Positions 25,669 through 54,592 of a stretch of 64,000 bases of DNA are shown here, in pieces. The notes beneath the pieces were generated by a model. That model was not told where the DNA came from. It saw only the letters and a program-made list of their open reading frames with translations, and did not search any database. The DNA is from a virus, in the IMG/VR virus record IMGVR_UViG_3300033512_000075, positions 1-64,000 of that record; one strand, written 5' to 3'. Position numbers and translations under genes: made by a program. Positions within the stretch are counted from its first letter, which is position 1. Each line of letters opens with the position of its first letter.

Positions 25669-28163
25669 GATTTAAAAAACAAGAAGTATATAATTTAAAG
25701 AAAGCTAAGTGGGGAGAGATATTAACTGCTGCAAGTGGTGTGGCAAGTATGGTACCGGGAGGACAGGTAATAGGTGCTGTAGGTGGAATTGCTGGTATGG
25801 GATTAAGTGCTTGGGAAGCTAATAATGAGAGATTGAAAGAAGAGCAGAGAATGAAACAAGAGCAGTTACAGCAATCAGCACAAGGTAGACTACAGACCAA
25901 TCTACAAAACTACGATTTAAATATACCTACATTTGCTTATGGTGGACAAATGCCACCTCAACAAGTAAGACAACAACAAGTTACACCAATAGCAGGAAAT
26001 ACACATGAACAGGGAGGTACTAATTTAGCTAATGTAGTTGAGGCAGAGCAAGGAGAAGCTAAACAAGGTAATGTAATATATAGTGATAGGCTTAAGATAG
26101 AAAAGAAGGATTTAGATAGGTATCAATTACCTAAGAAGTATTTAGGAAAGACTATTGCAGATATTGCAAAAGATATAGAATCGCAGTTCAGTCTTAGGAA
26201 GTTGGATAGTTTAGATAATAAAGAGAAGCAAAGACGATTAGATGACTTGACACAGATACAAGAAGTAAAGAAAGTAGAACAAGAGAATAAGACATATAAT
26301 AACGACTTGAAGCAAGGCAGAGTAGAGATTACACCTGAAATGATGCAAGATATGCAAGGAATACAACAACAAGATATGATGGGACAACAGGCACAAATGC
26401 AACAACAAGTGACTCCTGAAGTGCAACAACAAATGATGATGCAACAACAAGGAGGACAGATACCTATGATGATGTATGGTGGCAGACTGCCTAAGGCTGC
26501 ATTTGGACGTACTATACCACCTGAAATAAATGATAAATATAAACAGAGTGCAGAAGAATATTATAGACAAGGAGGAATAGCAGATTATCCTGTAATGGGT
26601 AATTATAGTCCTCAAGATGAAGCATATAATGCAAGTTTAAGACCTATAAGTCAATTAGTAGATACTCCTTATGGTAAAGAAGCTGCATCGAGTAGAAGGT
26701 TTCCTTTATTTAGTAAAAAGATAGATGAAAGCAACCTAAATAATATAGCACCTTCATTTACATCTACTTCTAATTTTGTAGTTAATGATTATGGAACATC
26801 TATTAATCCACCCGGTGTTATAGATACGGGTTCGGGTTCAGGAGACCCAAGAATAGACACTACTGATATAACAAAAGGATATACGCCAAGAACTGATAAC
26901 ACGAGTAATAATAACATACAATCGAATAATACTGTGAGTTCAGGTAATCCTCTAATATATGAGTATGGAGTAAGTAAAGACCCTATGGAGTTTAGAAAGT
27001 CTTATGATAAAGGTATTAATTTAAATACAAATTCCAGAGAAAATAGAACAAGTACCGGAAATACAAATTCTAGTAATGTATTAACAAGTAGTAATGTAGC
27101 AGACTTAAATGCAACACAAGATTTAAGTTTCTTATCTCAAAGATCAAATAGTAATATAAACACAAGTAATAAAACTAATCCATCAGCAAATGTAGGTACT
27201 GTATCTATATCACCTGCAAATACAAGTAATGGAATATCAAATAATATAGGTACGACACAATCAGGTACAAATCCACTACAAAGCAAAGACTGGTATAATA
27301 ATGGATATGGAAGACAGAAAGCAGAAGCAAATAGCAATAAGGGAGTACTACCAAGCGATTATATAACTAAACGTGAAATTAATCAAGGAGGCGGTTCAGG
27401 AAATCCTATGGTAGATAATAGTGGCTTATTTACAGGAATACAAGGGGCTGAAGGAAATAGTAATTATACAATGCCTGTATTTGATAGTACTGGTGCTAAT
27501 ATAGCCAACAAGGCAGCTTATACATCAGCAGACAATACAGGTGATCCCAACATGGGCACGGAGTTCAATTTTAACTACGAACAACCCAATGCCTTCTTAT
27601 CTAATTTAGGTGGTATGTATGATATAGCAAGAGGTATACATGGATTACTTAAACCACAAAAGAAGTTCTCAAGAATCAAGCCTGATTATGTAAGAGCTTC
27701 CTATGTAGACCCACAAAGAGCCCTTCAAGATGTATCTAATTCATATGGAAGTGCCGCTAATGTGGTAAGAAATAACAGTATAGGAGGAGGTAATTATATG
27801 TCTAATATGCTTGCATTGAAAGGGCAGGAAGGACAAGACAGAGCAAGAACAAATCAGGCTTATGATGAAGCCAATGTAGGAATAGCTAACCAGTATAAAG
27901 GAGTAAATGCACAGATGAATGTAGGTACACAACAAGCCAACTCACAAATACAACAGTATGAAGAGATGGTAAATCAACAAGAGAGAGATGTTGCATCTAA
28001 TATGATACAAGGAGGACTTACAGATATGTCTGGACATTATTTACAGAGACAAGGAGACCAGAATCAGTATAATATGCAAACGGCTACACTTCCTTTCTTA
28101 TCACAGAACAATATAAAGGTATACCAAGACAAAGGTAAATGGTATTATAAATATCAAAAGTAA
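25665..28163 (+). CDS. Low-complexity virion protein (832 aa), putative ejected/internal protein
   Basis: N-terminal glycine-zipper-like hydrophobic stretch 'AASGVASMVPGGQVIGAVGGIAGMGLSAW'. Two 'YGG[QR][ML]P' motifs and 'GNTHEQGG'. Q/M-rich and N/S/T-rich tracts. ATGA overlap with the upstream gene. Confidence 0.5.
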   Translation: MRFKKQEVYNLKKAKWGEILTAASGVASMVPGGQVIGAVGGIAGMGLSAWEANNERLKEEQRMKQEQLQQSAQGRLQTNLQNYDLNIPTFAYGGQMPPQQVRQQQVTPIAGNTHEQGGTNLANVVEAEQGEAKQGNVIYSDRLKIEKKDLDRYQLPKKYLGKTIADIAKDIESQFSLRKLDSLDNKEKQRRLDDLTQIQEVKKVEQENKTYNNDLKQGRVEITPEMMQDMQGIQQQDMMGQQAQMQQQVTPEVQQQMMMQQQGGQIPMMMYGGRLPKAAFGRTIPPEINDKYKQSAEEYYRQGGIADYPVMGNYSPQDEAYNASLRPISQLVDTPYGKEAASSRRFPLFSKKIDESNLNNIAPSFTSTSNFVVNDYGTSINPPGVIDTGSGSGDPRIDTTDITKGYTPRTDNTSNNNIQSNNTVSSGNPLIYEYGVSKDPMEFRKSYDKGINLNTNSRENRTSTGNTNSSNVLTSSNVADLNATQDLSFLSQRSNSNINTSNKTNPSANVGTVSISPANTSNGISNNIGTTQSGTNPLQSKDWYNNGYGRQKAEANSNKGVLPSDYITKREINQGGGSGNPMVDNSGLFTGIQGAEGNSNYTMPVFDSTGANIANKAAYTSADNTGDPNMGTEFNFNYEQPNAFLSNLGGMYDIARGIHGLLKPQKKFSRIKPDYVRASYVDPQRALQDVSNSYGSAANVVRNNSIGGGNYMSNMLALKGQEGQDRARTNQAYDEANVGIANQYKGVNAQMNVGTQQANSQIQQYEEMVNQQERDVASNMIQGGLTDMSGHYLQRQGDQNQYNMQTATLPFLSQNNIKVYQDKGKWYYKYQK
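27032..27062 (-). repeat. Copy F (degenerate) of the bipartite element, in coding sequence
   Basis: The plus strand reads TTCCAGAGAAAATAGAACAAGTACCGGAAAT. Confidence 0.4.
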
Positions 28164-30742: not shown

Positions 30743-33700
30743 ATGCCAAGAGATATAGATTATAATAAATTCGGATTTGACCCAGCTGAATTAGGACAGA
30801 AGACAGCAGAGAGAGTAGAGAAACAAAGAATGGAGACATTAAATAAGGACTTTGATAGAATGAACATAAGTCCTGAAGATGGAGCATCTTTACTCAATTA
30901 TGAGCAATCAAAAGCAAAAGATACAGGACTTGTATTAGAAGGAGTTGATATAAGTGGATTTGAGGGATTGGTTAATACAGATGATTTTAGTATAAGTACA
31001 TTTGATAATAGTAAATTAAATGACTTAGCAGCCGAAAGACAAACAACCTCACAGAAGTTATTAAGAACTGCAGCCAATACATTAGGTAATGTACCTATAG
31101 GTATAATAGGAGATATAGGAGGTACAGCCGCCATCTTTGAAGATGACTTATCTAATTCATTAACAAGATGGGCAGAAGAGAATAGAGATTGGGCTGCAGG
31201 TAAAGTATATACTAAGACAGGAGATACGGATTGGTATGGTAATATAGGAGGAGGCTTATCAAGTGCTATTCAATTTGGTATAGAGGGTGCTTTATTTGGT
31301 GCTATGTTTGGACAAACAGGTGCAGTAGTAGGTAAGTTACCTAAGTTATTAGCAACTACTGCTAAATTACAGAAAGCAACTAAGTTAGCTACAGTATTAG
31401 AGAAGTATGGATTAGCTTCAAGGAATGCAGCAGAAACAGCACTTGAGTTAAGTTCATTTAGTAAGAATGTATTAGCAGGTACTACAAAGGCATTTGAAAC
31501 TACTATACCAAGACTTGCTACTGCAACACATCTTAGCTTACTTGAGGGCAGGTTAAGTGGTGTTACTGTATATGATGATTTTATGAGAGATAACCTACAG
31601 GCATATATAAATAAGTACGAAGAACAAGATGGAACTAAAAAGGCACAAGAGGCTGCATCACAGGCAGGTAATACTACTATGTATATAAGTGCCTTAAAGA
31701 ATATACCATTAAATATAACAGGCACAGCAGCTGCATTTAAGAATGTGAATAAAGAAGTAGTTGAGAGATTTGGATTGAATGAATTAGCTAAGAAGGGAGG
31801 ATTTGCAGAGGGATTAAAGACTATAAAGCAAAGTAGAGACTATAAGAATTACATAAGAGATAACTACGGGTATAGAGCATTAGGGGAACCACTTCAAGAG
31901 GGACTTGAAGAAACCAATACAGGAATGGCTGAAGTATCTGGTAGAAGATTAGGGGAATCACTTGCAGGAGAAGATTTAAGAGGAGAAGAGAATAAGTTCT
32001 CTTATATAGATGAAATGACTAACTTCGGCGAATCACTTGAGAGGATAGGAACTAAAGAGGGAGCTATTGAGTTCGGTATGGGAGCTGTTATGGGTGCAGT
32101 TACTACAGGAGTAATGGATATCATGCCAAGAAGAGTAACCGAGAATGGAGAATCTAAGTTAGAGTGGTATGGTAGAATAAAGAGTGATAGAAAAGAAAGA
32201 GAAGATAGATTTGACTTAGTAGGTGAGACTATGGTAAAGGACTTAGAGAGGATAGATAGTCTTAATGATGAGTTGATTGAAGTAACTGCAGATGAACAAG
32301 CGGGTATTAAAGTAGAAGGACAAAGAAGCAAACAAGATGTAGAGAATGACTTATTTAATATAACAAGCTTTAATGCAGTTTCATTAGGTATTACAGACCA
32401 CTTAGTACAAGAGTATAAAGATATAGCAAACCAAGACAATAAAGACGTAAACAAAGTAGCTAATAAAAGACAAGAGGAATTCAATGCACTTAATAAGGAG
32501 AGTGCTAAATTAGATGAAGCAATCAAGACTACAGAACAGGACTTCAATATGGCTAATGAGCAACAGAAAGAACAAATACAAGGACAATTAGAAGAACTAA
32601 CAAAAAGAAAAGAAGTAATAGAGAAAGATAAAGTAACATTAAAGGCTGAAATAGCTAAAGTAGCAGGTAAGACAGAAGCTCAAGTTAATGGATATGCTAA
32701 AGATAAAGACGATAATAGATATAAGCAATTAGCTGAAAGACAGATAGATAAGTTGAATGAAGCTAAGGCAGCCTATAAAGACTATGAATTCAAGTACGGT
32801 AATACTGCTGCAAACAAATATGGTATAGTTAATAGATTACTTGAGTTGAGATTGGGCAGTATGACTACTCAAGAGAATATAGAGAATAGTATAGAAGAGT
32901 TCAATAAAGACTTAACATATAAAAGCCCTAAAGATAAAGGCAGTTTAGTTGAATATGAGATGGATAGTATGTTAGGTAATTATGTTAGAGTTAAGAAAGA
33001 AATAGAAGCTCTGCTTGAATTACAAGCTAAGGAGAAAGATAAGGGAATATCTGATGTAATGACTAAAGAGATTAATAGTAGAAAAGATAAGTTATCTGAT
33101 TTAAGACAGCAAATTACTGTAAAGGAAGTTAGTGCAGGAGTTAAAGTTAATATGTTTGAAGAGAAATATAAACAAGAAGAAAAGATATTGAAGAAGAGAT
33201 TAGATGCATTAGAAGGAGATAAACTTAAAGTACTGAAAGGAAGAGAAGAGGAAATCAGTAAAACAAATAAAAAGATAAAAGAAGTAACTGATGAACTCAA
33301 TAAATTCAGTACAGGCTTAACAGAAAATAAGTTAAATAGTAAAGCATCAAAAGAAGCCCTTTTATCTTACGAAATCAGATTGACTGCACTTAGACTTCAA
33401 GCAGAGAAAGAGCGGAGAGAATTAGAAAGAACGAGAAAAGAAATAGCTGGTATAGGCTCTAATGTAAGTCTCTATGAAATGAAATCAAGGTCTTTAACAG
33501 ATAAAGAAAAACAATTAAAAGAAGATACAATACAACTCGAAGAAGATAAAGATAAAACAAGAGAAGTAATAGATAAGATTAAAAAAGAAATAAGTACTTA
33601 TGATATTAATACACCAACAGATAAATTAAAGATAGAGGAGCTGAATGAAAGTCTGTTTTTATATGAAGAGAAGTCTAAGTTCTTAAGGACACAGAAAGAA

Positions 33701-36640
33701 ATGATTGAAGATGAATTAGATAAATTAAGAAAGGAGAATAAAGATACTATAGAATATAGTAAAGATAAATCTAAAGCTGTTGTAAATAGTGAAAAAGACA
33801 AAATAAGAAATCAATATGAAGAAGAAGTAGCATATGAGAGAAGTGAAGAGGGGTTTAAAACACTAGAAGATAAAGTATCAGATAAATTGAACGGACACTT
33901 AATTAACTTTAAAAACAATATAGAATCCTATCTATATCAAGTAAATAGACATGATAAGTTATTAACTGAAGAAGGACAAACAGAATTTGTTAAGAATGGT
34001 ATAAAAAATAAGACTGAAGCAGTAGAGTCATTTAAGAAAGCAGTACAGAAAGCAAAGGATAATGTGGACAGAGAAGCAAACTTAAAGTCAAAAGAAACAA
34101 CCGGAAAGACAGTAAATACAGTAAATGAAAAAGCAGAGAAAGAAAGGTTAGCTAAGGAAGCTAAAGCAAAGGCTGCAGAAGAGGCACTGAAGAATAAGGC
34201 ATCTGCAGGTGTGCAAGCAGTTATAGATTTAAAGGAACAGATTATTAAATGGTCCGTAGTTGAAGGTGAAGCTGATTTATTAGCTTCATTAGATAAAGTA
34301 ACAGAATGGATACAAGATAATCAAGATGAGCATAAGGATACTATAAAATATATAAATGAATTTACAGATGCCTTTAAGAAAGGACAGCCTGAAAAATTCA
34401 CAGGTATAGTAGATAATATATTAAAGACACTTCCATTATTCCCTATAGATGCTACAGAAGCCATGAAGAATGTACAGTATGCTAAGGGTAGAATGAATAA
34501 TGAGTTAGCAGACCTTGAAGACTTGAACTTTGAAGAATCTAATATACACGAAGAAGCACGTGATTTATTTAAGGTAATACAAGACAAGAAAGATAATGGA
34601 GAAGCTACTACAGAAGAAGAAACTAAAATGACTGATTTACGTAGCAGACTTAAAGAGCACAGTAATAAACTAATAGACCACTTCACTAAGCTAATAGAGG
34701 ATTATAAATTAAAGACATATGTATTAGACGAGAATGGTAATCCAATAGCAAGAGATTTAATAGAAGAACACCGCAAACTATTTGCAGTAATGAAGAGAAG
34801 CTTCGATGTAATATCTCCTACTATGAGAAAGAACGCACGTAGAAGTAGCTTAGATGCTGTAGTAGGTTACTTAAATAATTACTTCAGACTATTACAAGAT
34901 AATATGGAAGTAGTAGGAACAAAAGAAGTTGAAGGTAAGCCTGTAGATGAATTAGTAGCTAATCTATTTAACTTTTCTATACTTATAAATGATAATGAGA
35001 TTATAGGTGTAGATCCTGATATAGTCAATTCAGGTACTATAAAAACAGTACTAAATAAAGCACCTGAATATGAAGAAGACTACAATAATAGACATCAATA
35101 TACAGATGAGACGAATAGATTAAAGACAAGTGTATTATCTATTGCTAATACAAGTGTAAGATATAATAAAACAACTAAATTACAGGAGGGTACAGGTGTG
35201 TTATCCATACCTACAGAATCATCTAAATATCTAAATAGAGGAGATGTAGTAGAGTTCATAGTAGAAGATAATGACGATTTGCTTATAACAAATTATGAAG
35301 GTGAGAAAGAAACTAAGATGACTTGGGGAGAATTTAAGAAGAAGTTCAATGGAAATGAGCAACTATTAAATGATTATATACCTATTAAAGTAATATCTAA
35401 AGGAATTGAGGCAGGTTACTTACATAGTATAGGTAGAGTAACTGATGATTACTTCCAAGTAGAAAAAGATAGTAGTATAGAAATAAAGAGAGATGAACTA
35501 AGAAGTGCTCGTACAAATATACTAAAAGGAGCCGATACAGGTAAAGTATACTACAAGTCTGTAGGTATATTAAATGCAGAGAAGTCAGGAAGCGAGAATG
35601 AATTAGATAACTACGGAACACTTAATGAAAGACTTAAAGACTCTAAAGAGGGATTAGGTAATCCTATAATAGCAGTATCTATAGGAACTTCATTGGTTAC
35701 TTCTGTAGATGGACAGAAGAGGAATATAAAAACAAGTGAGTTCTCTGATGAGTTGAGAGAGTATCTTAAGACATTTGGGTTTGGTAAGGCAATAGCATTA
35801 GTTCCTTCTGCTGATGGAAGTCTACAAGTAGAGTTCGTATTGCAGATGAGTCTTAATGGTAATGTAAAGAAAGGAAATAAGAATAAGAAGATAGGAACTG
35901 ATTTGATAGAAATCTTTATAGGATTCCTATCTAAATTAAATGCAACAAGTAATCCATTATATAAAGAAGGAGTACTTATAAAAGATGAGTTCAATATACA
36001 TGACTTAATAGAAGCTATTACATATGTAGATATAAATCATAGTGATATCGCAGGAGTTAATATAGATGCTTCTAAGAATGCATATAGTAAGATGTATAGA
36101 GTTAAGGAAGGAACTAAGTCTAAGTATTATATAAACATAAATCAAGCCAGCCCAGCAGTAGAGATTACAGAAGCAAGTCTAAAGAATAAAGATGTTATAA
36201 ATGCTATAGGTAATTTAAGATTTAATGCAAGTACTAAAGCTATAGAAAAGAACATACAAATACCTAATGGGAATGGAGAGCTTGTAAATTATATAGACTT
36301 TATAGGAGATAGATTTGTAATAGATGCTAAAGTAAAGACAGTAATACATAATACAGAAGATAACTTAAATAACAATATAGGAAATACGGAATTCATATAT
36401 TATAATAATCCTGTAGTGGCTTTTAGTGTAGATGTAATGAAAGATAAGCCTAAACCACCAACAGAAGAAACAAATAAAGAAGAAGTAAAGCAAGAAGTAG
36501 AATCAACTAAACAAGGACTAAAATTAAATAATGCAGAGCTATTTGAAATAGAAGGTTCTGAGCTATTCGATTATAAAGTATTTGAAGGTATTGTACCTGA
36601 AGTAGAAGCAGTAACAACAGTACCATGCAAAACAAAATAA
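30743..36640 (+). CDS. Giant coiled-coil protein (1,965 aa), putative ejected cargo protein
   Basis: N-terminal glycine-rich hydrophobic segments ('VPIGIIGDIGGTAAIF', 'GGGLSSAIQFGIEGALFGAMFGQTGAVVG'), then about 1,000 aa of K/E-rich coiled coil. It sits just upstream of the RNAP-like giant gene. Confidence 0.55.
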   Translation: MPRDIDYNKFGFDPAELGQKTAERVEKQRMETLNKDFDRMNISPEDGASLLNYEQSKAKDTGLVLEGVDISGFEGLVNTDDFSISTFDNSKLNDLAAERQTTSQKLLRTAANTLGNVPIGIIGDIGGTAAIFEDDLSNSLTRWAEENRDWAAGKVYTKTGDTDWYGNIGGGLSSAIQFGIEGALFGAMFGQTGAVVGKLPKLLATTAKLQKATKLATVLEKYGLASRNAAETALELSSFSKNVLAGTTKAFETTIPRLATATHLSLLEGRLSGVTVYDDFMRDNLQAYINKYEEQDGTKKAQEAASQAGNTTMYISALKNIPLNITGTAAAFKNVNKEVVERFGLNELAKKGGFAEGLKTIKQSRDYKNYIRDNYGYRALGEPLQEGLEETNTGMAEVSGRRLGESLAGEDLRGEENKFSYIDEMTNFGESLERIGTKEGAIEFGMGAVMGAVTTGVMDIMPRRVTENGESKLEWYGRIKSDRKEREDRFDLVGETMVKDLERIDSLNDELIEVTADEQAGIKVEGQRSKQDVENDLFNITSFNAVSLGITDHLVQEYKDIANQDNKDVNKVANKRQEEFNALNKESAKLDEAIKTTEQDFNMANEQQKEQIQGQLEELTKRKEVIEKDKVTLKAEIAKVAGKTEAQVNGYAKDKDDNRYKQLAERQIDKLNEAKAAYKDYEFKYGNTAANKYGIVNRLLELRLGSMTTQENIENSIEEFNKDLTYKSPKDKGSLVEYEMDSMLGNYVRVKKEIEALLELQAKEKDKGISDVMTKEINSRKDKLSDLRQQITVKEVSAGVKVNMFEEKYKQEEKILKKRLDALEGDKLKVLKGREEEISKTNKKIKEVTDELNKFSTGLTENKLNSKASKEALLSYEIRLTALRLQAEKERRELERTRKEIAGIGSNVSLYEMKSRSLTDKEKQLKEDTIQLEEDKDKTREVIDKIKKEISTYDINTPTDKLKIEELNESLFLYEEKSKFLRTQKEMIEDELDKLRKENKDTIEYSKDKSKAVVNSEKDKIRNQYEEEVAYERSEEGFKTLEDKVSDKLNGHLINFKNNIESYLYQVNRHDKLLTEEGQTEFVKNGIKNKTEAVESFKKAVQKAKDNVDREANLKSKETTGKTVNTVNEKAEKERLAKEAKAKAAEEALKNKASAGVQAVIDLKEQIIKWSVVEGEADLLASLDKVTEWIQDNQDEHKDTIKYINEFTDAFKKGQPEKFTGIVDNILKTLPLFPIDATEAMKNVQYAKGRMNNELADLEDLNFEESNIHEEARDLFKVIQDKKDNGEATTEEETKMTDLRSRLKEHSNKLIDHFTKLIEDYKLKTYVLDENGNPIARDLIEEHRKLFAVMKRSFDVISPTMRKNARRSSLDAVVGYLNNYFRLLQDNMEVVGTKEVEGKPVDELVANLFNFSILINDNEIIGVDPDIVNSGTIKTVLNKAPEYEEDYNNRHQYTDETNRLKTSVLSIANTSVRYNKTTKLQEGTGVLSIPTESSKYLNRGDVVEFIVEDNDDLLITNYEGEKETKMTWGEFKKKFNGNEQLLNDYIPIKVISKGIEAGYLHSIGRVTDDYFQVEKDSSIEIKRDELRSARTNILKGADTGKVYYKSVGILNAEKSGSENELDNYGTLNERLKDSKEGLGNPIIAVSIGTSLVTSVDGQKRNIKTSEFSDELREYLKTFGFGKAIALVPSADGSLQVEFVLQMSLNGNVKKGNKNKKIGTDLIEIFIGFLSKLNATSNPLYKEGVLIKDEFNIHDLIEAITYVDINHSDIAGVNIDASKNAYSKMYRVKEGTKSKYYININQASPAVEITEASLKNKDVINAIGNLRFNASTKAIEKNIQIPNGNGELVNYIDFIGDRFVIDAKVKTVIHNTEDNLNNNIGNTEFIYYNNPVVAFSVDVMKDKPKPPTEETNKEEVKQEVESTKQGLKLNNAELFEIEGSELFDYKVFEGIVPEVEAVTTVPCKTK

Positions 36641-36659: not shown

Positions 36660-39600
36660 ATGAATTGTGAACCAGTTGAATTAATAGAAGTATATAAATC
36701 ACTAAGACCAAATGCCACAGAGAACGAATCTAATATTTTGGTAAAGATGGCTGTAAACTATAATAATAAATACGGAGATAGAATAAAGGACGCAAAAGAG
36801 CCGTTTAAGTATTTAGATAAAGAATATAAGATAGAGTCTAAGTTATATAAAGACTTAGTTAGTTATTATGGAAATAAGAGAATGGCTAATGAAGTATTAG
36901 CCATTCATGTCTATTCGGGCTCTAAACAAGCTAATGCTTTTTTAAGTAGTATTGGATATGACTTCGAGAATAAGACAGGGGAACCTACCTTTAATCAGAT
37001 ATCATCACTATTAAAGATAAAGACAGATACATTCAATCCTGAATTTATAAAGGCACTAAATGAGGATTCAGTATACAGTGTAAAGGGATTAAGTGCTAAT
37101 CAAATAATAGAGTTAGTTAATAGTTATGTACAAGGCTTTAAATTAGATAAAGATGTATCACCTATACAGCAGTTGGATTCCTTTACAGAGGACTTAAAGA
37201 CCATATTAGAAAGATATAAAGCAACAAGAGATAAAATAGCATCTCTTATAGGAGACGATACAAAAGACCAAAAACTTGTAAATAGTGAGTTAGATAGATT
37301 TAATTATTTAGTAAATGTGTTTGAGGCTGCTACAAACGAATCTAATTTAGAGAAAGTAAGGACACTTGTAGAAAGAAGACTTATAAATGATAAGACTATA
37401 AAGATAAATCTGAAGAATAAGAAGATAGAATTAGCAGCAGATGAGAGATTAAAAGCTATGTGGAATGATACTGCTTCATTCTCTATAGATTGGAAAACTA
37501 CTGCTAATGCAGCCTTAAAAAAGGTACTATCCAACATAGATAAATTAAATGACCTTAGTATAAAAGAAAGAAATGAGTTCGGGTTAGTTAAGAAGTTAGA
37601 TAAGGAGTTTGTTATGCAGTATATGATAAACTCTGTAAGTAACCCTAATGCAAGTGCAGAGGAGATGCTTGAAGAGATAAAAACTAAGGGTACTATAGGA
37701 AGTAATATAGTAGAAGAGCTTAATAAACAAAAAGATATAGAAGGATTAAAGAACAACTTGAAGGCAGTATTAACGACCCAAGACGTAAACTTAATTACTA
37801 TATTACATAATACAGGAAGAAAAGAATCACAAGAAGGAGCCAATGACGGTATAAAGAAAACTGCTTATCCGTTTCTCACTAACAGAAATGCCTTAGAGAA
37901 TAGAATAAATAATGAATGGAGATTAAATCAAAAGATGTTATCTGAAGGTATATACAGTTCTGAGTTAGGTAATATGAAAGGCAGTTTGAAGTTAATAACT
38001 GATAAAGGTATAGATTACAAGTTATTAAATCATATAAAATCATCAAGCCTATCCACATGGGAAAAGAAAGCAAAAGAGCTTATTAAAAATACTACAAATA
38101 GACCACAACTTATACAAGCCATTATAGATGATAGAACCATAACTGTAGATAGAAAACCTGTAATAGAGTATGGTCTATTAAGTACTCTTAATGGATTAGG
38201 TATAGATGTAACAAGACCTGAACTTGAATCTTTATTTAATAACCCTACTAAGTACTTTAAACTTGCAGGAGTTAAAGGAAATGTAAGTATACATGAGATG
38301 TTTACAAGTAATAAGAACGGTATTATACGTAATATATTCCATACAGGATTTGAAAGAGATGCAGGTGAATTTGAAGAGCTATCAAGTGCATTTAATCCAT
38401 TAAGTAATAATAAACTTGTAAAGGTATTAGCTAATCTAAAAGCAGAGAACTCAGATAAATATGTATTAAGCAATTACAGAAACAATGAAGGTAATATGAT
38501 TTCATCTAATAGTATACCTTCAAGATTCAGCTTAGTAACAGATAAACTAACTAATGAAGATAAGGGTTTTATAGAAGATATGAGAAAAGGGGATTTTACA
38601 AGATACTCTGCATTTCTACCAGAAGCAACTAAAGAAGAAAGAAAGAAATACAATGATAAGATTAATCTATTCTCTCTAAAAGAAGTCAATTACTTCTATA
38701 TAGATTCCATGAATAAAGAGAATGGAGGAGAAACAGATAAACCTAAGACCCGACCTAAGATGACAAGAGAAGAGCAATATATGCAAATGATTACCTCCTT
38801 CTTTAATAGCGGTAATGATTTAACATATATGTCTCCAGAAGTAATGTCTGATAAATCTAAGTATCCATTACTTAGTTTTGAAAGGATTGAAGTAGCTGAC
38901 TTCAAAGATGTATATGATAAAGACGGAAAGCTTAATTTAGTTAAGGCATACACTAAAGGAAATAAAGATGAGGAGCCAATGAATATCTTAAATATGTTAA
39001 TGCAGTCAGCCTATGCAGAGATAGAGAGATATAATATGATGGTAGACTTAACTAATAAGTACAACAATAATGAATTGAGTGTAGAAGATAAACTTAGATT
39101 TGAGAAGATTAGTAAGACTTATAAAGATGGAGCAATGAAGTTCTTCTTCTATACAGAAATGAATAAAGAGAACACATTCGTATTTACTGACGGTAAGATA
39201 GATATATCAATAAATGATAATAAGAAAGCAATAGCAGCCATAGTAAATAGAAGTGCCGAATTATCTATAAATAAACTAGTAGATGAGTTTAAGAAATATG
39301 GTATATATAACTATTTAGAATCAAGAATAGCAGATGAATACAAAAAGAAGTCCGGTAATATAACATTGTCTGCAGAAGAAACTAAAAGAGGTAAAGGATA
39401 TATGGATAAACCAATAAGAGCCTTAGCTACAGAGATGCATATCAATCAAATATTATTGAATCATAACTTCACTATGACGTTTGGCGGAGACCCTGCAATG
39501 TTCTATAAAGAGAAGAAAGGAAGTTGGATTAGAAATTCAATAGATACATACTTTAAGAGAATGGGAGGTATATCCGGTACTGCAATTAAAGGAAGGTACA

Positions 39601-42600
39601 TATTTAAGAATGAAGATGGAACTACAGACGATTATAGTAAAGTAGAGTACTTTGTAATAGATGATGTGGAAACAAGAAGATATCAAGTAAGAAATAAAGA
39701 GCTGCTTGATGTAGACCAATATGGTAAAGTAAATGTAGCAGATGCTGAAGAGATAACATCTCTAAGAGAAGATATGACTGTACTATATAGTAAGGAAGGT
39801 ATATCTACAGACACGTTTAAGAAGATAATAGATAATTTAAATGCAGGTAAGATGCCAAACTTACATGAGCTTGGAGTAGAATTACAAAAAAGAAAACCTC
39901 TATTCTTTGCTACAGAGTATGACCAATTCACAGCATCTAATCAAGTAAACTACATGAAATCAAGTTCATATGCAGCAACTAAGGAGTTAGCGGCTGGGTT
40001 TGATTTAGAGGTATTGCAAAAGTATATAGAAAAGAGAGAGAAGAAGCATATAGCTGACGGTAACAGAATCAACGTAAGAGTAATCACCAAATCTGCAGCA
40101 AAAGCAAGAGGTATTGAACCATTTGCTATATTTGATGTACCTACTACAGATTCTAATAGAGCACAAGATAGAACAGCAAGGATAAACGAAGTTAAAGTAG
40201 AAGCTATGTTCGAGAGAGGTGGTATGATATTAGATAGAGATGGATTAGGTCTACAACAAGAGGAATTAGATAATGAAGATGATACTATTACTAACATAAG
40301 CCAATTAAACAAGTTAGCATTTCAAGGACTTCTACTTGATGACAGGAAGCTATTTATATATAAAGGAGGTAAACCAATATCAGCAAAAGAATTAAAGAAG
40401 ATAAAAGAGAATATAAGAAAAGAGATATTTAAAGAAGCTAAGAACGAATTTGAGAAAGAGTTTGGTATAACTAATGGTAAGTTTACAGACCTAAAGAAAA
40501 TAGTAGCTTTTATAAAAGAAGAACTTATATCATCAGGTAAAGCTAATGAAGCAGATATGATTAGGATTGCAGAAGATGGTAACTTGGTGGTGCCATTATA
40601 TCTAACTCCTGTATATAATACAATAGCTTCTAATTTGGTATCTTTAATTACTAATAGAGTAGTTAAGTCAAGAATGCAAGGTAAGTCCCATGCACAAATG
40701 AGTAACTTGGGATTTAGACATTTAGGAGACTATAATAAATCTAATATAATATTTACAGATAGTTTCAATGAATCTCTTACATATACAGAGATAGAGGGTA
40801 ATACAGTAAAGAGAGCACAGATAATAATCCCTTGGCCCTTTAAAGATATAGATATGAAAGACTATATGGTAGGAAATAAGATAGATATGAATAAGATAGA
40901 TAAAGCTCTACTAAATACCATAAGTGCTCGTATCCCTAATCAATCCCATAGTAGTACAATAGCATTGGAGATAGTAGGATTTCTTCCGCAAGGCTATGAA
41001 GATATGGTTATATTGCCTGACGAGATAACAGCTCAAATGGGTTCTGATTTTGACATCGACCATTTATATAGCTACTTATTTAATCACGAAGTAGATAGTA
41101 ATGGCAAGTTAACTAAGATAAGAGAGAAGACAAATAAACTCGCATGGCTGCAAAACAACTACATGGAAGTATTAGAGTCTCTATTCACACACCCGGAAGT
41201 AGCCAAGAAGTCATTAAGGTCATTAGACTTTAAAGATGTTGAAGATTATGTAGAAAAGAAATTAAACAGTAAAGAAATTAATCTAATAAATAACCATTGG
41301 GATATAGTAAATACCTTAGATGACTACAATTCAAATCAGAGCGGTAAGAAAGGTATTGCTATACAAAGTGTACATAGTGTTGTAATGGCTTATTTAGAAG
41401 ATAAGGGCATGAAGTTAAATGAAGCTATTAAATTCAATGGAAAGACATACACAGGAGTTGGATTAGGCACATATAAGAATCATAAGAATGAAGATAGAAC
41501 AAACTTCAACTTCACTACAATGATACAGAATGAAGCAGTAGATAATGCCAATAATAAGCTATTAGATGCTACTGGTTGGACATTAGAGTTGTCTAAGGCT
41601 TTTAATGGATTGAATGCTTTGATAACAGATGAGAAAGATTCTATATCAGGAGAGATGATAATGGCTATGTTCAATCACCCAATAGTCAAAGAGTTACAAT
41701 TCTTATTAGAGCAGTCAGATAGTCAATTCTCTGGACTAAATTATACATTTAATGGTGCAGTAAAGAAGTTAATAAGAGAAAATAAGCTTACACTTGAACC
41801 TAAAGTATATACTGCAGAAGAGATAATAAATAGTTATAAGAATCCTGTAATGGATAAAGGAATAGCACTTAGTATACTTGAGAGCTTAGTACAAGCCAAT
41901 AGAGTAGGTCAGTCCTTAGTTAATATAGGAAGTGTACTTAATATAGATAGTAAAGGAGTTGGAAGCGACTTCAATGAACTTGAATCCAAGCTACTTAAAT
42001 ATAATAAGGTACTAAAAGATAAGATATTTGAATCTACTAAACAGCTATTTGAAGATGAAGACGGTACTAATGAGTTAGGAGAAACTATTAGCTTAGGAAT
42101 TAAATATACTAAAGATTTATTCAATAACAAGGTAGGAGATAAAGAAGCTCTATTCCACTATAAGAAACCATTATATACAGACATAATACAACTAGCTTCA
42201 GAGTATAAAGGAACAGATTTAAATGCAGAAGATATAAGTTATTTGTCTAATGCTACATTAGATTATTTAAAAGCAGATAGAACTAATCCTATATTTGAGG
42301 GGGATTCATTAGATTCAATAAGAAGTAAGTTCTTATTCGGTGAATCTACATTATATAATAGAGTTAATGCTTTCCTTAAGAGTATAAGTAGAGCACATCC
42401 AGCCTACAAGTTTATATCTAACTTAGAAGGTAAAATAGACAGGAAGACAGGTGCAGTCTATATAGAATATAAACAAGACACTAAGACAGAAGAAGAAGTA
42501 CAGTTGAATGCAAACTCATTACTATCTATGTTCTACAGTGATGACTTAGTAGAGAACCTATTAGCTAAAGACTTGCTTAAGTATAACTTTGCTATGGGTG

Positions 42601-50000: not shown

Positions 50001-53000
50001 AGTGAATTTGAAGTACTGCATAAAAAAGTTAGTGGAGATGATTGGAAAAATGTTACACAACAAGAAATAGAAAGACATGAATATTTATCTAATTTAATAA
50101 ATAAAGTAGGTATTCAACCAACTCAAACTAATGAAAATTTAAAAGAGAATATTGAAAGTGTTAAAGGAAGAATAAGTGATTTAGTTAATACAGAAGAAGG
50201 AATAATTGATTTACAAGAAGAATATTTATCTCAGGCAATAGAAAATTTAAAAAGTCTTAAAAACGCTAAAATTTTATTTAATGATAGTTCTGTAAATGAG
50301 GAAAATGTTTCTGCTAATAAATGGTTTATTCAATCAGAGAATAATTATCCTTCAATAGGACTTGATACAAAAAAAGAAGCTGAAGAATACCTAAAAAATG
50401 AACTAACTGATGCTGAAAATTTTCTTAATAAAATAAAAACTAAATCTAAAAAAGAATATAATAAGCAAGCATTAATTAACACTAAATTAGCAGCATTAAA
50501 GGAAGTAGCTAAAAAATACCCAAGAAGTTTAATTAGAAGCGAAGTTAAGCAATCACTAGTAAAGAATACCAGTACACAGAATTACCTATTTGAAGATGAT
50601 GAATTACCATTTCAAAGAATACAATCAGAAACACAAGAAGACTTCCAGTCAGTAGAACCTACAATAAACTTGGATATAGTATCAGACGAAGAGTACCAAA
50701 TCCTTAAAGAGGGTATAACAACCACTGCAAATGAAATATACGACAATAGAATAAAAGCATTAAAGAACACAATAGCAAAGCACCCTGATAAACAAGAGAA
50801 GTATAATGCCCGTATTCAAGAATTACAGGAAGCCCAAGAGAAGCTAAAGGAAGATACTGTATTAAATGAGATACTTACAAGCGTTGAAGGTCTATTAAGT
50901 AGTGCTAAATCAGACTTAACTAATGACCAAACAGCCACAGGAGTAATGAACACATTACAACAGTTAGCTTCCATGAATGTAATATTAGAGATGTATGCAA
51001 ATGAAGATAGAATAAACAACCAAGTACTTAAAGACAAGGCATCAGATTTAATATCAGAAATGATGAGATTGTCTAATGTAGCCAATGCACTTGTTCCTAA
51101 AGTAATGAAAGGAATAGCAGACAGATATAATATAGATGTATCAATAGAAGACTTAAAGATAATACCAGAAGAGAAGACCATGAATGCTATATTTAGAGGT
51201 ATTGAGAATATGTCATCTAAATTAGTAGCCACTATAAGTAAAGCACTTGATTTAGCAGAACGTCTTAAGAACAATAACCTAAATAAGAACTTCATAGTTC
51301 CATTCAATAAGATATTAAAGGACTTAAAAGATGCTAAAGTAGATATAAACTCACAGGAAGTTATAGATAGTCTTATGCAAGAAGACAAGGACGGAAACCA
51401 AACAAAGAACTACATAAATGAATACAGTGATAAGTTCTGGTCAGAGAGAAGAGATGTAAGATTCAATTTAGGTGCAATATCTAAATATAAAAAGAAAGGA
51501 CAAACCAACATAGTATCAAATCTATCAAAAAAGATACGTGAGTATTATGATAGAATGGTATATGTTAATCCTGCCTACTTCTATGAAGATACAACAGAAG
51601 AAGATAAACAAGAGATATATAATAAGATAGTAAATGAGATAGGTATAGAAAAAGCAGATAAGTTGATAGCTGAAGCAGATAAGAAGTATGCTACATATCT
51701 AACAAGAAAGAATGATGCGGAATTACGTATTGTAGCAGAAACTAACAGTGAACAAGAACAAGACTTTAAAATAGGTAAATGGATTGAATACAATAGTCCT
51801 GAAAACTTCATGAGACAGTTGAACTCAAATCTATCTATAGAAACCACTAATGGAAGCAATTGGCTTGTAGTTGCACCGAAGAAACAAATTAATGGAAAGA
51901 ATACAGGACTATATGATACTAAGTATGAGAAGCTATATAAGAATAAAGAAAAGAATAAAGCCCTTATAGCTTTCTTTGAATTCACTAATGAGTCTTTAAA
52001 TAAATATAAGAAGTACTTCCCGCATTACATATCAGATGAGTTAAATGCTAACTTTCTACCAGAAGTATTTCAAGACTTACAGACTACAGGACTTACAAGT
52101 AAAATAGAGAAGATAAAAAGAGCTGCAATAGAATCTGTTTCAGAGACAAGAGAAGGTTATGCTGGATATGATATAAGAGACCATACAGGAAAGAAGATAG
52201 GTACTATACCAACCCCTTACACTAAAGATACTCTTACAGGACTCAAGAAGAAGATAAGTACAATAGAAAAGAGAATGAAGAACTTAGAACTTGAGATACT
52301 TGAGATATTAGAAATAACCCCTACTGTAGATGATTACTTCAGAGAAGGTAATATGAAGATGGTAGCAGACAAGAAAGAAAAGCTCAAAGAAGATAAAGAA
52401 GAAATAACAAAACTAAAAGAAAGATACAATACATCATTCAAGTATAAGTCTACAGACTTAGTTAAGACTACAAGACTATTTGCAGAATCAGCAGAGAACT
52501 ACAAGGCAAAGGCACAAGTAGAGGATATAGTGTTATTAGGTAAGACAGCCCTACAGAATGCAAGAGAGCTTGAATTAAATGATGGAGGTAAACCAGTTAA
52601 ACTTGGAGAGAATAGACTCGCTTCATTTAAGAATGGATTACAGATAACACAGAAAGCAGTAGACCATGCAATAGAGAGCATACTATATGAAAATAGAAGA
52701 GATAGAGAAATGAAATCAAATGTAGTAGTTACCTCAACACCTGCAGGAAAACAGACTATAAAAGAACATAATGTATTAAATAAAGAACTTAAAGATAAAC
52801 TAAGTAAAGGAGAAATAACTAAAGACGAGTTCAATGTAAAGATAGCAGACTTAAACGAGAAGTTAATGGAAGAAGCTTCTGTTAGAAAGGTATCAGGTAA
52901 TAAGATAATGGATTTGCTACAGAAATTTACATATATATCATCATTAGGCTGGAATCCGTATTCAGCTATATCTAACTTGATATCAGGTAGATTAGTAAAT

Positions 53001-54140
53001 TCTTTAGAAGCTTCATCTGGTCAGTTCTTTAGTCAGAAAGACTTGATGTTTGCAACTAATAAGATAAAGTACTCATTCATAAAGAGCTTAACAGGAAGAG
53101 AAACAGAAGAATCCAAGAAAATAAAAGCACTTATAGATAAGTATGGTATCTTATTCAATCTACTTGAAACAGACTACGGTAATAATGGTACACTATCATT
53201 CCTTAATAAGAAAGAGAGCCTACTTAATCCTATGGAGATGCAGAAGAGAGGGGAGTATATAAATCAAGGAACTACATTCCTATCAATGATGAACGCTACA
53301 AAGATAACAGACTTGAATGGAAAGGAATATACACTATGGGAAGCATATGATACAGACGGTAAATTAAAACCTAACTTCGATGCAACAGAGTGGGAGAATG
53401 AACTTACAATAGATACTATAAATGGATATACTAAATTCAGAGATAAAGTAATTAAATTAAATAAGAAGCTACACGGTAACTATGCAAGTCCTGTACTGTA
53501 TAAGAAGTATGCGATAGGTAGAGCAGTAGGTACATTCAGGAGTTGGTTGCCTGAAGCCATTGCATCAAGATTTGAACCTGAAAGAGATGATAGTGATTTA
53601 GGAACTAAGGTAAAGGGAAGATATAGAAGCTATGCTAAGTTATATGAAGAAAAGAACTTCATAGGTGCTTTAAGGACTACTATGTCTATGTTAGTTAAAT
53701 CTACATTAAGAATGAAAGTAGATAAGAATGGACTTAATGATGTAGACTATTATAATATGAAAAGAAACATAAGGGAAATACAGTGGGGGATAGGTATGAT
53801 GTTAGCCTATTATGGTCTTTCATTGATACTCAATGCCTTTGGAGATGAAGATGATGAAGAGAAGTTTGGTATAATTACTACAATGAATATGCTTAATAGA
53901 GCTCAAGGTGATATATCATTATACCTTAATCCAACAGAAGCTAAGAGAATGATAGATAATCCATTCCCTATGATAAATTCATTATATAAAGTATATAAGA
54001 TAATACCAAAGATGTTTGAGACTGCAAGTAATGATGATAAGAATCACGATATAATGGACTTTGGAAAGTATGCACTATCGGCATTACCCGGTACTAATGT
54101 ATTGACTAAGACTTACAATATGGGTACAATGGAATATTAA
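47031..54140 (+). CDS. Giant polyvalent protein (2,369 aa) with an N-terminal ART-like module and a C-terminal membrane segment
   Basis: Uninterrupted ORF. The ART-PolyVal-like motifs are given in the sub-feature. Hydrophobic helix 'IQWGIGMMLAYYGLSLILNAF' lies near the C-terminus (about nt 53778-53845). Confidence 0.6.
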   Translation: MAFCPQVSDPNVVVAFNNIVTMFDGTPLKVEEFKSLDLRKERTGADKEAMDIAYNVWDITKGENLPETIKEAVDLILNNTAQETNTSNSKEQIEANRNKETDSELSRNENGEVLAPNGNVSKLYKDIEQLEEVTTKQQAEQLYKQTRSKEFKDWFGDSKVVDENGEPLIVYHGSPFKFNYFKKENIGKNTLKEIEGFYFSFSKEYSKGYYNMDLVGDNYIFEDIIMRNPDTYGYYMNLSSNGYFNIKTREFTVSDNTLLDDILNNEKLIYEISNVIRKYNKDYNFYNSSIDIFELSSISFNNELIDTKEKKKLIIDEIKNNVINFFEMADKKLKDKGVPNYNPTVYPVFLSLVDPIEIDIAIGDITSKQKLNLNNNDGLITKEELLVKEPNQIKSVLNQGTFSTTENNIYYQNNTTQSTEDYIASEKTIRDLAARMSDRIGIPIRFESDRTKKYKGKLENNTAHINLAYATLDTPIHEILGHSIIRAIKDKELYNNLLKELETGKGKEVLDRIKRDYQYKQSNIESGNWEYGMYRIQTSSTAHQYFDTLKEAEENIEKYSPKYTLEEQQEEAIVELLGMMTAEKLDVIKDGKLISLLKRLLKEIKSFVKDLLKQKEIEIDKLPDNMTLGDLSDLLAYSNSKLILPGYEVEYTTPDNMKFKTYSEANNHISKLVKSVKDVDLSGAKLNIINQNTISSINEIKVNSFSGTDIDDIPFYAERRNGIWYLSYTKIDLENDFYNNQENVTTNVSVIRYYNLTLNYNNINQFIEKNKEYEQSKEIIDEWKRINNIVYNPEEVYSRGQGFYSVVGAYSSFDVNLMFQNLLTHLEDHKKVGGEFVISAFTKPIDKNIGHLEGGGGKIKFKIFPQSNDIKWAANRDVFSGSVWDASEKINKDKKSEILGVSYTKAPSMTHINSDAIVPNLADVIDKLAYQHNELGIQLTGNNFRLEYDEDIPYQTKKLLGSLNNILEKKFGKLIEPEISKKQNINKDIISEFEVLHKKVSGDDWKNVTQQEIERHEYLSNLINKVGIQPTQTNENLKENIESVKGRISDLVNTEEGIIDLQEEYLSQAIENLKSLKNAKILFNDSSVNEENVSANKWFIQSENNYPSIGLDTKKEAEEYLKNELTDAENFLNKIKTKSKKEYNKQALINTKLAALKEVAKKYPRSLIRSEVKQSLVKNTSTQNYLFEDDELPFQRIQSETQEDFQSVEPTINLDIVSDEEYQILKEGITTTANEIYDNRIKALKNTIAKHPDKQEKYNARIQELQEAQEKLKEDTVLNEILTSVEGLLSSAKSDLTNDQTATGVMNTLQQLASMNVILEMYANEDRINNQVLKDKASDLISEMMRLSNVANALVPKVMKGIADRYNIDVSIEDLKIIPEEKTMNAIFRGIENMSSKLVATISKALDLAERLKNNNLNKNFIVPFNKILKDLKDAKVDINSQEVIDSLMQEDKDGNQTKNYINEYSDKFWSERRDVRFNLGAISKYKKKGQTNIVSNLSKKIREYYDRMVYVNPAYFYEDTTEEDKQEIYNKIVNEIGIEKADKLIAEADKKYATYLTRKNDAELRIVAETNSEQEQDFKIGKWIEYNSPENFMRQLNSNLSIETTNGSNWLVVAPKKQINGKNTGLYDTKYEKLYKNKEKNKALIAFFEFTNESLNKYKKYFPHYISDELNANFLPEVFQDLQTTGLTSKIEKIKRAAIESVSETREGYAGYDIRDHTGKKIGTIPTPYTKDTLTGLKKKISTIEKRMKNLELEILEILEITPTVDDYFREGNMKMVADKKEKLKEDKEEITKLKERYNTSFKYKSTDLVKTTRLFAESAENYKAKAQVEDIVLLGKTALQNARELELNDGGKPVKLGENRLASFKNGLQITQKAVDHAIESILYENRRDREMKSNVVVTSTPAGKQTIKEHNVLNKELKDKLSKGEITKDEFNVKIADLNEKLMEEASVRKVSGNKIMDLLQKFTYISSLGWNPYSAISNLISGRLVNSLEASSGQFFSQKDLMFATNKIKYSFIKSLTGRETEESKKIKALIDKYGILFNLLETDYGNNGTLSFLNKKESLLNPMEMQKRGEYINQGTTFLSMMNATKITDLNGKEYTLWEAYDTDGKLKPNFDATEWENELTIDTINGYTKFRDKVIKLNKKLHGNYASPVLYKKYAIGRAVGTFRSWLPEAIASRFEPERDDSDLGTKVKGRYRSYAKLYEEKNFIGALRTTMSMLVKSTLRMKVDKNGLNDVDYYNMKRNIREIQWGIGMMLAYYGLSLILNAFGDEDDEEKFGIITTMNMLNRAQGDISLYLNPTEAKRMIDNPFPMINSLYKVYKIIPKMFETASNDDKNHDIMDFGKYALSALPGTNVLTKTYNMGTMEY
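47478..48260 (+). other. ART-PolyVal-like ADP-ribosyltransferase module (candidate)
   Basis: 'EFKDWFGDSKVVDENGEPLIVYHGSPF', 'GFYFSFSKEYSKGYY' and 'KEELLVKEPNQIKSVLNQGTF' give an H / Y-S / E arrangement. I recognise it from memory of polyvalent-protein ART domains. Confidence 0.5.
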
Positions 54141-54163
54141 AATCTAATTTAAAGAAAAAAAGA

Positions 54164-54216
54164 ACCTACAACCGAAGCTAATAGCTTTTTTAGGGTTGTA
54201 GGTATCTTTATTTTTT
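54164..54216. terminator. Bidirectional intrinsic terminator 1
   Basis: ACCTACAACC (54164-54173) pairs with GGTTGTAGGT (54194-54203). An A-run lies upstream (54151-54162) and a T-rich run downstream (54207-54216). It starts 24 nt after the stop of the 2,369-aa gene. Confidence 0.75.
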
Positions 54217-54331
54217 GATATTTGACTTGTAATATGTAAAAAGAATTTGAGCTTAATGTAGGGCTTTTTTAATCTTTACATACTGTAATATATAATAACA
54301 CATATACTTATTCTCTGTTAGTTAAATACTA

Positions 54332-54369
54332 ATTTCCAGAGAAAGATGAAGTAACAAATTCACCGAAAA
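54332..54369 (-). promoter_or_regulatory. Copy C of the bipartite element (inverted relative to copies A and B)
   Basis: The plus strand reads ATTTCCAGAGAAAGATGAAGTAACAAATTCACCGAAAA. Its reverse complement contains TTTTCGGTGAAT and CTTCATCTTTCTCTGGAAAT. Confidence 0.6.
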
Positions 54370-54380
54370 TAAAAAAAAGA

Positions 54381-54591: not shown

Positions 54592-54592
54592 C

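Follow-up and report, generated by a model that had tools for sequence, protein, structure and literature searches.

A crAss-type virion RNA polymerase, a zincin-like module and a SLOG-NADAR-helicase cassette in a single 3,451-aa open reading frame of an uncultured podophage

The window analysed here is a 64,000 nt stretch of DNA, positions 1 to 64,000 of the IMG/VR virus record IMGVR_UViG_3300033512_000075, and the genome is that of an uncultured, divergent crAss-like (Crassvirales-type) podophage. At 36660..47015 on the + strand lies a complete open reading frame (ORF) of 3,451 amino acids (aa) with an ATG start, which carries an RNA polymerase core, a zincin-like module, a SLOG domain, a NADAR domain, a small beta-rich domain and a helicase in one chain. 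Translation gives 3,451 codons and zero internal stops. The window is ~31% G+C and ~8% of random codons would be stops, and simple arithmetic from this composition puts the chance of an open run of such length at ~e^-280; the ORF is therefore not a chance one. An initial annotation, made from the sequence alone, had described a single uninterrupted ORF of 10,356 nt with five motif sets along it. The ORF is indeed open, both in the window and in an independent assembly described below, and every one of the quoted motifs was recovered at the position reported for it. DFDID (aa 1463–1467, nt 41046–41060) is the sole DxDxD in the protein, and HELLH (aa 2235–2239, nt 43362–43376), which is followed by IDEFMIALMTD (aa 2307–2317), is the sole HExxH. 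The SLOG motifs YAGIGSRETTPE and GGTGQAVEMARRKG span aa 2448–2614, the NADAR motifs KLSNFA and SSEEAYQENK span aa 2665–2692, and the helicase motifs GYAGTGKTS, ILVIDESSM, FMGDPAQLKPP, YAHTIHKSQGGTY and YVAVTRARK span aa 2983–3412.

Missed stops or frameshifts can create giant ORFs in metagenomic contigs, and the parts joined here are separate genes in phage phi14:2 and at locus L003, which are points in favour of an assembly or sequencing artefact that merged adjacent genes. However, an ORF of identical length is present in a second assembly from a different archive (ENA ERZ27248460, locus L005). It differs from the window ORF by three substitutions and no indel; two of the substitutions are synonymous and the third is I489V. 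An exact look-up of the window protein found no entry, whereas its I489V variant is database entry P0101. The DNA flanking the ORF is 98.3–99.9% identical in L005 and the window. Two public collections contain the protein, on contigs of 87.7 kb (ENA) and 96 kb (JGI/IMG), and relatives at ~42% identity have fused ORFs of comparable size. As the same ORF occurs in two independent assemblies, a fusion produced by a frameshift or missed stop is effectively excluded, and the artefact reading, which we consider extremely improbable, was rejected.

The two-barrel virion RNA polymerase core (aa ~964–2057; 39549..42830, +) is homologous to gp66 of phi14:2, and this assignment is secure. A family profile seeded by aa 951–2150 matched gp66 with an E-value of 4.6e-116 over gp66 aa 891–1388 and 1469–2033, and identity to gp66 is ~20% over the aligned core. 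A direct pairwise phmmer comparison of the window protein with gp66 returned no match. The catalytic DFDID (D1463/D1465/D1467; 41046..41060, +) aligns column for column with D1361/D1363/D1365 of gp66, which are experimentally defined catalytic residues, and the three Asp are kept in 152–153 of the 172 aligned rows. Besides the triad, gp66 keeps 23 of 30 listed family-conserved residues, including Lys aligned with K1079 and K1100 and Arg aligned with R1424. In tblastn searches, aa 1007–1484 matched virion structural proteins of the Flavobacterium phages FpV4/Fpv3 (E 7e-31) and aa 1275–1542 matched a crAssphage 'putative RNA polymerase' (E 5e-12). An AlphaFold model of aa 1000–2150, built on 25 sequences (predicted local distance difference test [pLDDT] 72.9; predicted template modelling score [pTM] 0.70), matched the gp66 structure 6VR4_A with E 5.2e-30, probability 1.00 and a query-normalized template modelling score (TMq) of 0.62 over 1,145 columns; after 6VR4 there were weak fold matches to Pol II Rpb1 and the African swine fever virus (ASFV) polymerase. 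Profile, catalytic triad and fold thus bear out the crAss-type RNA polymerase of the initial annotation, including the comparison of predicted structures that it had proposed.

An exhaustive HMMER search with aa 951–2150 returned 956 homologues, 215 of them below 1e-30 and nearly all 2,000–6,000 aa long. For the same polymerase region, a word-indexed homologue search returned nothing, K/N-rich low-complexity words having probably swamped the candidates, and a pattern scan of IMG/VR returned no relative. The best 150 cluster representatives among the 956 homologues were used for an architecture census with iterated profiles, in which R denotes the polymerase, Z the zincin, H the helicase, N NADAR, S SLOG and b the beta domain.

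Behind the polymerase is a zincin-like HExxH module (aa 2162–2399; 43143..43856, +) that is homologous to the N-terminal domain of phi14:2 gp65 and to the C1 domain of the phage N4 virion polymerase. Its HELLH metal-binding motif (43362..43376, +) has a likely third ligand in E2309 (nt 43584–43586). The motif residues are invariant or nearly so in alignment A4, with H2235, E2236 and H2239 kept in 136–137 of 145 aligned rows and E2309 in 135 of 145. The zincin profile matched gp65 aa 186–356 (E 2e-21), in which the HExxH is at residue 245; gp65 is the 'Zincin-like' protein mentioned by Drobysheva et al. When the PDB was queried with this profile, the matches were 9sfn_G, an 'internal virion protein' (7e-14), 8vb2_A, a 'tetrameric ejection protein' (2e-5), aa 2224–2329 of the N4 virion polymerase (2e-4) and Spartan SprT (0.014). 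Other podophages likewise have homologues of this module among their ejection or internal virion proteins. The matched region of the N4 polymerase corresponds to the HExxH domain that is termed C1 in the 2026 N4 structure and that Iyer et al. 2017 (PMC5512222) described as a metallopeptidase. C1 belongs to a C-terminal domain that binds the polymerase, and autoinhibition that dampens polymerase activity has been proposed. Given the homology to N4 C1, one module stands behind two unrelated packaged polymerases. In the census, the module was found in 126/150 polymerase relatives, nearly always directly behind the polymerase. The zincin is a conserved partner of the polymerase family and not an add-on that came with the cassette. 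The initial annotation was right about the domain; its placement of the zincin in an effector cassette was not upheld, as 126 of the 150 relatives have the module, it is homologous to gp65 and it is already in the literature.

The C-terminal part of the protein is an SF1B Dda/RecD/Pif1-like helicase (aa 2951–3440; 45510..46979, +) with a full motif set, Walker A, Walker B and motifs III, V and VI all being present. All of the Pfam cut-offs were passed, by AAA_30 (E 1.1e-21; 77.9 bits, cut-off 27), PIF1 (E 7e-12; 45.8 bits, cut-off 25.9) and UvrD_C_2 (E 1.6e-10; 41.1 bits, cut-off 27.4), and there were matches to phrog_325 'Dda-like helicase' (E 2.4e-78) and to Dda in the PDB (3UPU; E 6e-16). 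When the whole protein was compared with PDB sequences, only the helicase found matches. The SF1B helicase that had been read from the motifs is confirmed as Dda-like.

Between the zincin and the helicase is a SLOG/DprA-like Rossmann domain (aa 2431–2635; 43950..44564, +). It matches the 'DprA-like' family phrog_768 over 182/191 profile positions (E 2.8e-43) and has 100 homologues, with E-values down to 5e-84. The SLOG part of the model has pLDDT >90, and its Foldseek matches include DprA (4LJR/4LJK, probability 0.99), the SLOG domain of ThsA (7UXS, probability 0.93) and TRPM N-terminal domains. In the viral library it matched phage DprA-like proteins with E about 1e-9 to 5e-7 and target-normalized template modelling scores (TMt) of 0.4–0.7. 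The SLOG assignment made from the motifs therefore agrees with both phrog_768 and the fold matches. The Pfam DprA model gave no match even at E <= 10, so we claim only that the domain is SLOG/DprA-like; it is not assigned to DprA proper.

The NADAR domain (aa 2652–2776; 44613..44987, +) is a shortened variant in which E2685 and K2692 are the predicted catalytic residues. The segment alone gave only a partial match to TIGR02464 (18.7 bits against a cut-off of 73.7; E 0.0016) and no match to PDB sequences. The NADAR family profile A1, however, matches YbiA (2B3W; E 5e-18) and the NADAR structure 8BAU (E 8e-15); 19 of the 28 aligned relatives match PF08719 and 11 match PF08010 Phage_30_3. The window segment is linked to A1 members by phmmer at E 8e-7 to 3e-5. 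This part of the model also has pLDDT >90. Foldseek returned 2B3W with probability 0.99, TMt 0.45 and 20% identity, the E-value being only 0.04 with the multidomain query, and the viral-library match was a Marseillevirus NADAR protein (E 4e-4). E2685 is the only invariant column of A1, and K2692, seven residues further on, is aligned with the Lys of the family and of YbiA. The spacing of the Glu and Lys is identical to that of E36/K43 in AdfN of phage T4. The NADAR of the initial annotation thus stands on the profile of its relatives and on fold, the window segment itself being divergent and shortened. The segment that is missing contains the canonical 'GxxAKxLGR' stretch. Seven relatives (P0009, P0029, P0036, P0053, P0075, P0135 and P0166) have the same deletion; the shortened subgroup has a conserved motif of its own, 'F-[LI]-x-x-S-[ST]-H', and none of its members passes PF08719 alone. 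After NADAR comes a small beta-rich domain (aa 2811–2907; 45090..45380, +), which is also found ahead of the helicase in P0009, P0008, P0092, P0140 and P0201. It is modelled as ~8 strands (pLDDT 64–88), and a search with the 800-aa multidomain model returned no PDB fold match for it.

The census places the arrangement in context. The RZ architecture accounts for 84/150 relatives, R for 20/150, RZH for 19/150 and rarer architectures for 27/150. A helicase, NADAR or SLOG is in the same polypeptide as the polymerase in 44/150, and 106/150 have none of the three; a Dda-like helicase is in the same polypeptide in 39/150. The window order, RZSNbH, is unique among the 150, while P0140 has the same module set arranged as RSNbZH, and in P0080 the polymerase chain closes with a SLOG domain. 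Z and H are also present in P0102 and P0103, the nearest relatives (~42% identity), with other inserts replacing S and N. In P0103, DUF7831 (PF25176) occupies the SLOG/NADAR position (aa ~2740–2875). Many metagenomic proteins combine DUF7831 with SLOG, NADAR and AlkB-type dioxygenase domains, and it may, on that account, be another member of the same shuffled module pool. A Pfam scan found nothing in the zincin-helicase inserts of P0102, P0105 and P0106. A rough neighbour-joining tree built from the polymerase core requires no fewer than 27 state changes to account for the 39 proteins with a helicase, a count to which truncated contigs and shifting ORF boundaries contribute, and the presence of the helicase in the same ORF appears very labile.

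The SLOG-to-helicase part also occurs without the polymerase. P0009, a 1,244-aa protein, is colinear with aa 2363–3106 of the window protein (31% identity), and its gene directly precedes a gp65-like zincin ORF and the strand switch. At L003, where the cassette stands alone, a truncated ORF upstream was tried as the zincin and rejected, the zincin being in the downstream ORF. A comparison with related genomes had been suggested to see whether the modules are separate genes there, and P0009 provides such a case. The true add-on is the ~1,000-aa cassette from SLOG to helicase (aa 2431–3440), and, as judged from these sequence comparisons, the SLOG-NADAR-beta-helicase cassette appears to behave as a mobile unit. 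The ~1,000-aa effector cassette of the initial annotation is therefore retained in this narrower form, from which the zincin is left out. It had also been suggested that the exact fusion was undescribed. The order is unique among the 150 relatives, but fusion as such is not exceptional, given the 44/150 relatives above, the identical module set of P0140 and the giant Suoliviridae proteins discussed below.

The polymerase ORF is in the cargo/transcription block downstream of the structural genes. The order of the block is the large terminase subunit gene (TerL), portal, capsid genes, crAss_CARG1, three giant ORFs and then a strand switch, beyond which is a replication module on the - strand that includes ribonucleotide reductase. 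GC skew and AT skew both flip sign at ~54100–55000, exactly at the coding-strand switch. Among the upstream ORFs there are matches to the crAss-type families of terminase, portal and major head protein and to virion structural proteins. TerL is only ~38–39% identical to that of classified Crassvirales, and a megablast search of phage records with 25 kb of the sequence found no DNA-level relatives. The ORF at 25665..28163 (+) encodes an 832-aa homologue of crAss cargo protein 1, PF25725 crAss_CARG1 being recorded on the identical L005 gene, and marks the start of the cargo/ejection gene block. The gene order equals that of phi14:2, where g067, g066 (the polymerase) and g065 precede the strand switch. 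The ORF upstream of the polymerase (30743..36640, +; 1,965 aa) is in the position of the phi14:2 virion protein gp67, to which its gene order corresponds. It has no family match in Pfam or PHROGs, is weakly similar to the equivalent ORF of L006 (26% over ~460 aa), and marginally resembles the zincin region of gp65 (E 0.009), with no HExxH.

The ORF downstream (47031..54140, +; 2,369 aa) has an ART-PolyVal ADP-ribosyltransferase at aa 162–399 (PF18760, E 6.3e-10), and its aa 1948–2329 match aa 961–1371 of phi14:2 gp65 (E 7.6e-19) at the gp65 C-terminus. The gp65 homologue is in effect split, with the zincin half in the 3,451-aa ORF and the C-terminal half ending the next one, and between the two halves are the SLOG-to-helicase cassette and the ART-PolyVal domain. 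An ADP-ribose 'writer' (the ART-PolyVal of the next ORF) therefore adjoins a NADAR 'eraser'. In the relative L006, just the C-terminal part of the downstream ORF (1,372 aa) is present and the ART region is absent. Within the polymerase ORF, the N-terminal region (aa 1–950; 36660..39509, +) corresponds by position to the N-terminal ~890 aa of gp66. It has zero Pfam or NCBIfam matches, and phmmer detected sequence similarity only in the two closest relatives, P0102 and P0103. No tRNA or tmRNA genes were found in the window. Stop-codon reassignment occurs in some crAss-like lineages; all of the large ORFs here are open under the standard bacterial code and hence show no sign of it.

We interpret the 3,451-aa protein as an ejected virion polymerase with its usual zincin partner and an acquired cassette that provides ADP-ribose-removing counter-defence and a helicase acting on incoming DNA, and we put the probability of this reading at about 0.6. 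The protein would be packed as capsid cargo, like phi14:2 gp66 and gp47/gp49/gp50 of crAss001, and the polymerase would be ejected ahead of or with the DNA and transcribe the early genes. NADAR would most likely strip ADP-ribose from guanines of the incoming DNA and so counter a DarT1-type defence; alternatively, NADAR and SLOG might degrade ADP-ribose-derived immune signals. The helicase would work on the entering phage DNA. As for N4 C1, the likelier task of the zincin is in packaging, in ejection or in regulating the polymerase, and a dedicated role in cutting the modules apart appears less likely. That the zincin releases the modules by self-cleavage, as the initial annotation suggested might happen, is speculation.

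Several observations weigh against this interpretation. Packaging and injection of the 3,451-aa protein are presumed from its phi14:2 and crAss001 homologues. A helicase beside a polymerase that is blind to duplex DNA fits a role in transcription at least as well as one in counter-defence. The NADAR segment alone fails PF08719 and is without ~40 residues of canonical members. In known NADARs the third catalytic position is Glu, Asp or His, and the conserved His2742 here sits four columns after the canonical last-strand His/Glu column, where the alignment is unclean. For the zincin, Pfam DUF5700 scored 23.5–24.2 bits, under its cut-off of 25, and the zincin part of the 800-aa multidomain model is of low confidence (pLDDT 29–68) and has no fold match. 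No PDB fold match to that model was found at E <= 0.001, and the predicted-fold support for its domains comes from match probabilities and from the viral library. In profile scans of the kind that had been proposed, AAA_30, UvrD_C_2 and the DprA-like phrog_768 were found, PF08719 and the Pfam DprA model failed on the window sequence and DUF5700 was just below its cut-off.

A serious rival, which overlaps partly with the interpretation above and which we regard as possible though the less favoured, is that the helicase and the DprA-like SLOG are transcription accessories and not effectors directed at the host. They would unwind the duplex as it enters, hold the single strands and feed the polymerase a single-stranded template, in parallel to QDE-1 with QDE-3 and RPA. 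The enzyme gp66 transcribes single-stranded or denatured DNA efficiently and barely reads duplex DNA; QDE-1, a eukaryotic relative of gp66, depends on a helicase and RPA. A Dda-like helicase is in the chain of 39/150 relatives and also in Suoliviridae giants without NADAR or SLOG; the closest PDB fold to the SLOG part is that of DprA, which binds single-stranded DNA. On the other hand, gp65, gp66 and gp67 of phi14:2 are without a helicase, 106/150 relatives are without any of the three modules, and the lack of a Pfam DprA match argues in the same direction. Moreover, viral SLOG-NADAR fusions have been argued to target NAD-derived molecules, not DNA (PMC9503650). There is a further alternative, in which SLOG-NADAR acts on small NAD-derived immune signals such as the Thoeris-type cyclic ADP-ribose isomers and ADP-ribosylated DNA is not the target. 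SLOG with NADAR and/or Macro recurs in DNA viruses, and a role against NAD-derived signals has been proposed (PMC9503650); the ThsA SLOG sensor bound to 3'cADPR is among the fold matches here (probability 0.93). However, the only phage NADAR activity demonstrated experimentally is the removal of ADP-ribose from DNA guanine, and the helicase and DNA-binding-type SLOG in cis also point to DNA. We think it unlikely that immune signals are the target.

The protein could also be a true polyprotein. The zincin or some other protease would then cleave it before assembly or in the course of it, only the polymerase would be packaged, and the cassette, instead of being injected, would have a late role in the cell that produces the phage, such as replication or repair in the manner of T4 Dda. 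Cleavage of fused crAss polymerase-block proteins has been proposed in the literature, as has autoproteolysis by the metallopeptidases of polyvalent proteins (PMC5512222); ORF boundaries in the block shift freely among relatives, and the cassette is a separate gene elsewhere. Even as a separate gene, however, the cassette stays in the cargo block, with structural genes on one side and the gp65-like ORF on the other, and is not part of the replication module. The N4 polymerase, which has the homologous HExxH domain, is reported to be packaged uncleaved (PMC5512222). Homologues have been detected by virion mass spectrometry in phi14:2 and crAss001 particles, and crAss001 packs all three of its large polymerase-associated proteins. 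We doubt that the protein is processed in this way. A more ambitious version of the ejected-cargo interpretation, which we hold as a tentative and rather improbable proposal, is that the polypeptide is a self-contained, ejected 'read-and-repair' machine. The helicase and DprA-like domain would open the duplex and hold the single strands for the polymerase, which is unable to melt DNA by itself, as a phage counterpart of QDE-1/QDE-3/RPA, NADAR would clean host-added ADP-ribose off template guanines before phage gene expression, and the HExxH module would be a common ejection/regulation adaptor and not a protease.

Were the cassette to enter the cell together with the DNA, its counter-defence enzymes and helicase would act ahead of all phage gene expression, and the phage would have a pre-packaged answer to DNA ADP-ribosylation or to NAD-signal immunity. 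The census bears on how a polymerase that prefers single strands starts on an injected duplex, and, as about a quarter of the polymerases share their polypeptide with a helicase, the question lends itself readily to a direct biochemical test. The relationship of the crAss zincin to N4 C1 is one of which the 2026 N4 structure paper wrote that it 'warrants further investigation'. Taken as a genome feature, the ORF is one more arrangement in a known, highly shuffled family.

Giant multidomain proteins in the crAss transcription block, the fusion of three proteins into a 'huge polyprotein' and zincin and PDDEXK domains are established. Within the searchable text, to which neither the Yutin et al. 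2021 domain figure nor Yutin et al. 2018 belonged, no crAss polymerase ORF was described as containing NADAR or SLOG. The text of Iyer et al. 2017 (PMC5512222) has no mention of NADAR or SLOG. The window protein nevertheless resembles the polyvalent proteins described there in being a large multidomain protein, encoded among virion genes, that combines a polymerase and a metallopeptidase with conflict-type enzymes. The polyvalent-protein framing of the initial annotation fits, with several unrelated enzymatic domains, the virion-gene location and an ART-PolyVal domain in the next ORF. The N4 polymerase is T7-like and single-subunit, and is unrelated to the two-barrel enzyme here.

The NADAR domain is like T4 AdfN (gp30.3) in its fold and in its conserved Glu and Lys with the same spacing. 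AdfN removes ADP-ribose from DNA guanine and defeats DarTG1, and the mutated residues E36 and K43 are needed for its activity (PMC11825919, PMC11125620). However, AdfN is small and stand-alone, whereas the NADAR here is embedded in a probable virion protein and is ~40 internal residues shorter. The stand-alone SLOG-NADAR-helicase proteins of metagenomic phage contigs (such as P0009 and P0053) have the same order, with ~740 colinear residues, and precede a gp65-like zincin ORF, but they are products of separate genes of ~1,000–1,250 aa that are not joined to a polymerase.

In the deposited and classified Suoliviridae genomes cr50_1 and cr118_1, giant proteins (4,774 aa, L001 3010–17334, and 4,946 aa, L002 2944–17784, respectively), annotated only as 'DNA helicase' and 'exonuclease V', have a mid-protein polymerase and a C-terminal Dda-like helicase in the same block, as here. 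Unlike the window protein, they have no detected SLOG or NADAR, their single HExxH is upstream of the polymerase (aa 1665 in cr50_1, aa 1734 in cr118_1) and they have ~2,600 extra N-terminal residues; their TerL is ~38% identical to the window TerL. In phi14:2, the homologous two-barrel core shares its fold (6VR4), catalytic triad and genome position with the one described here, but the polymerase gp66 (2,180 aa) and gp65 (1,421 aa) are encoded by separate genes, and no SLOG, NADAR or helicase was found in gp65, gp66 or gp67. The zincin begins gp65 in phi14:2, while here the gp65-type zincin forms one chain with the polymerase and the counterpart of the gp65 C-terminus is in the next ORF. We conclude that the 3,451-aa protein is neither a new system nor a unique fusion, but a new arrangement in a known and highly modular family of virion polymerase polyproteins.

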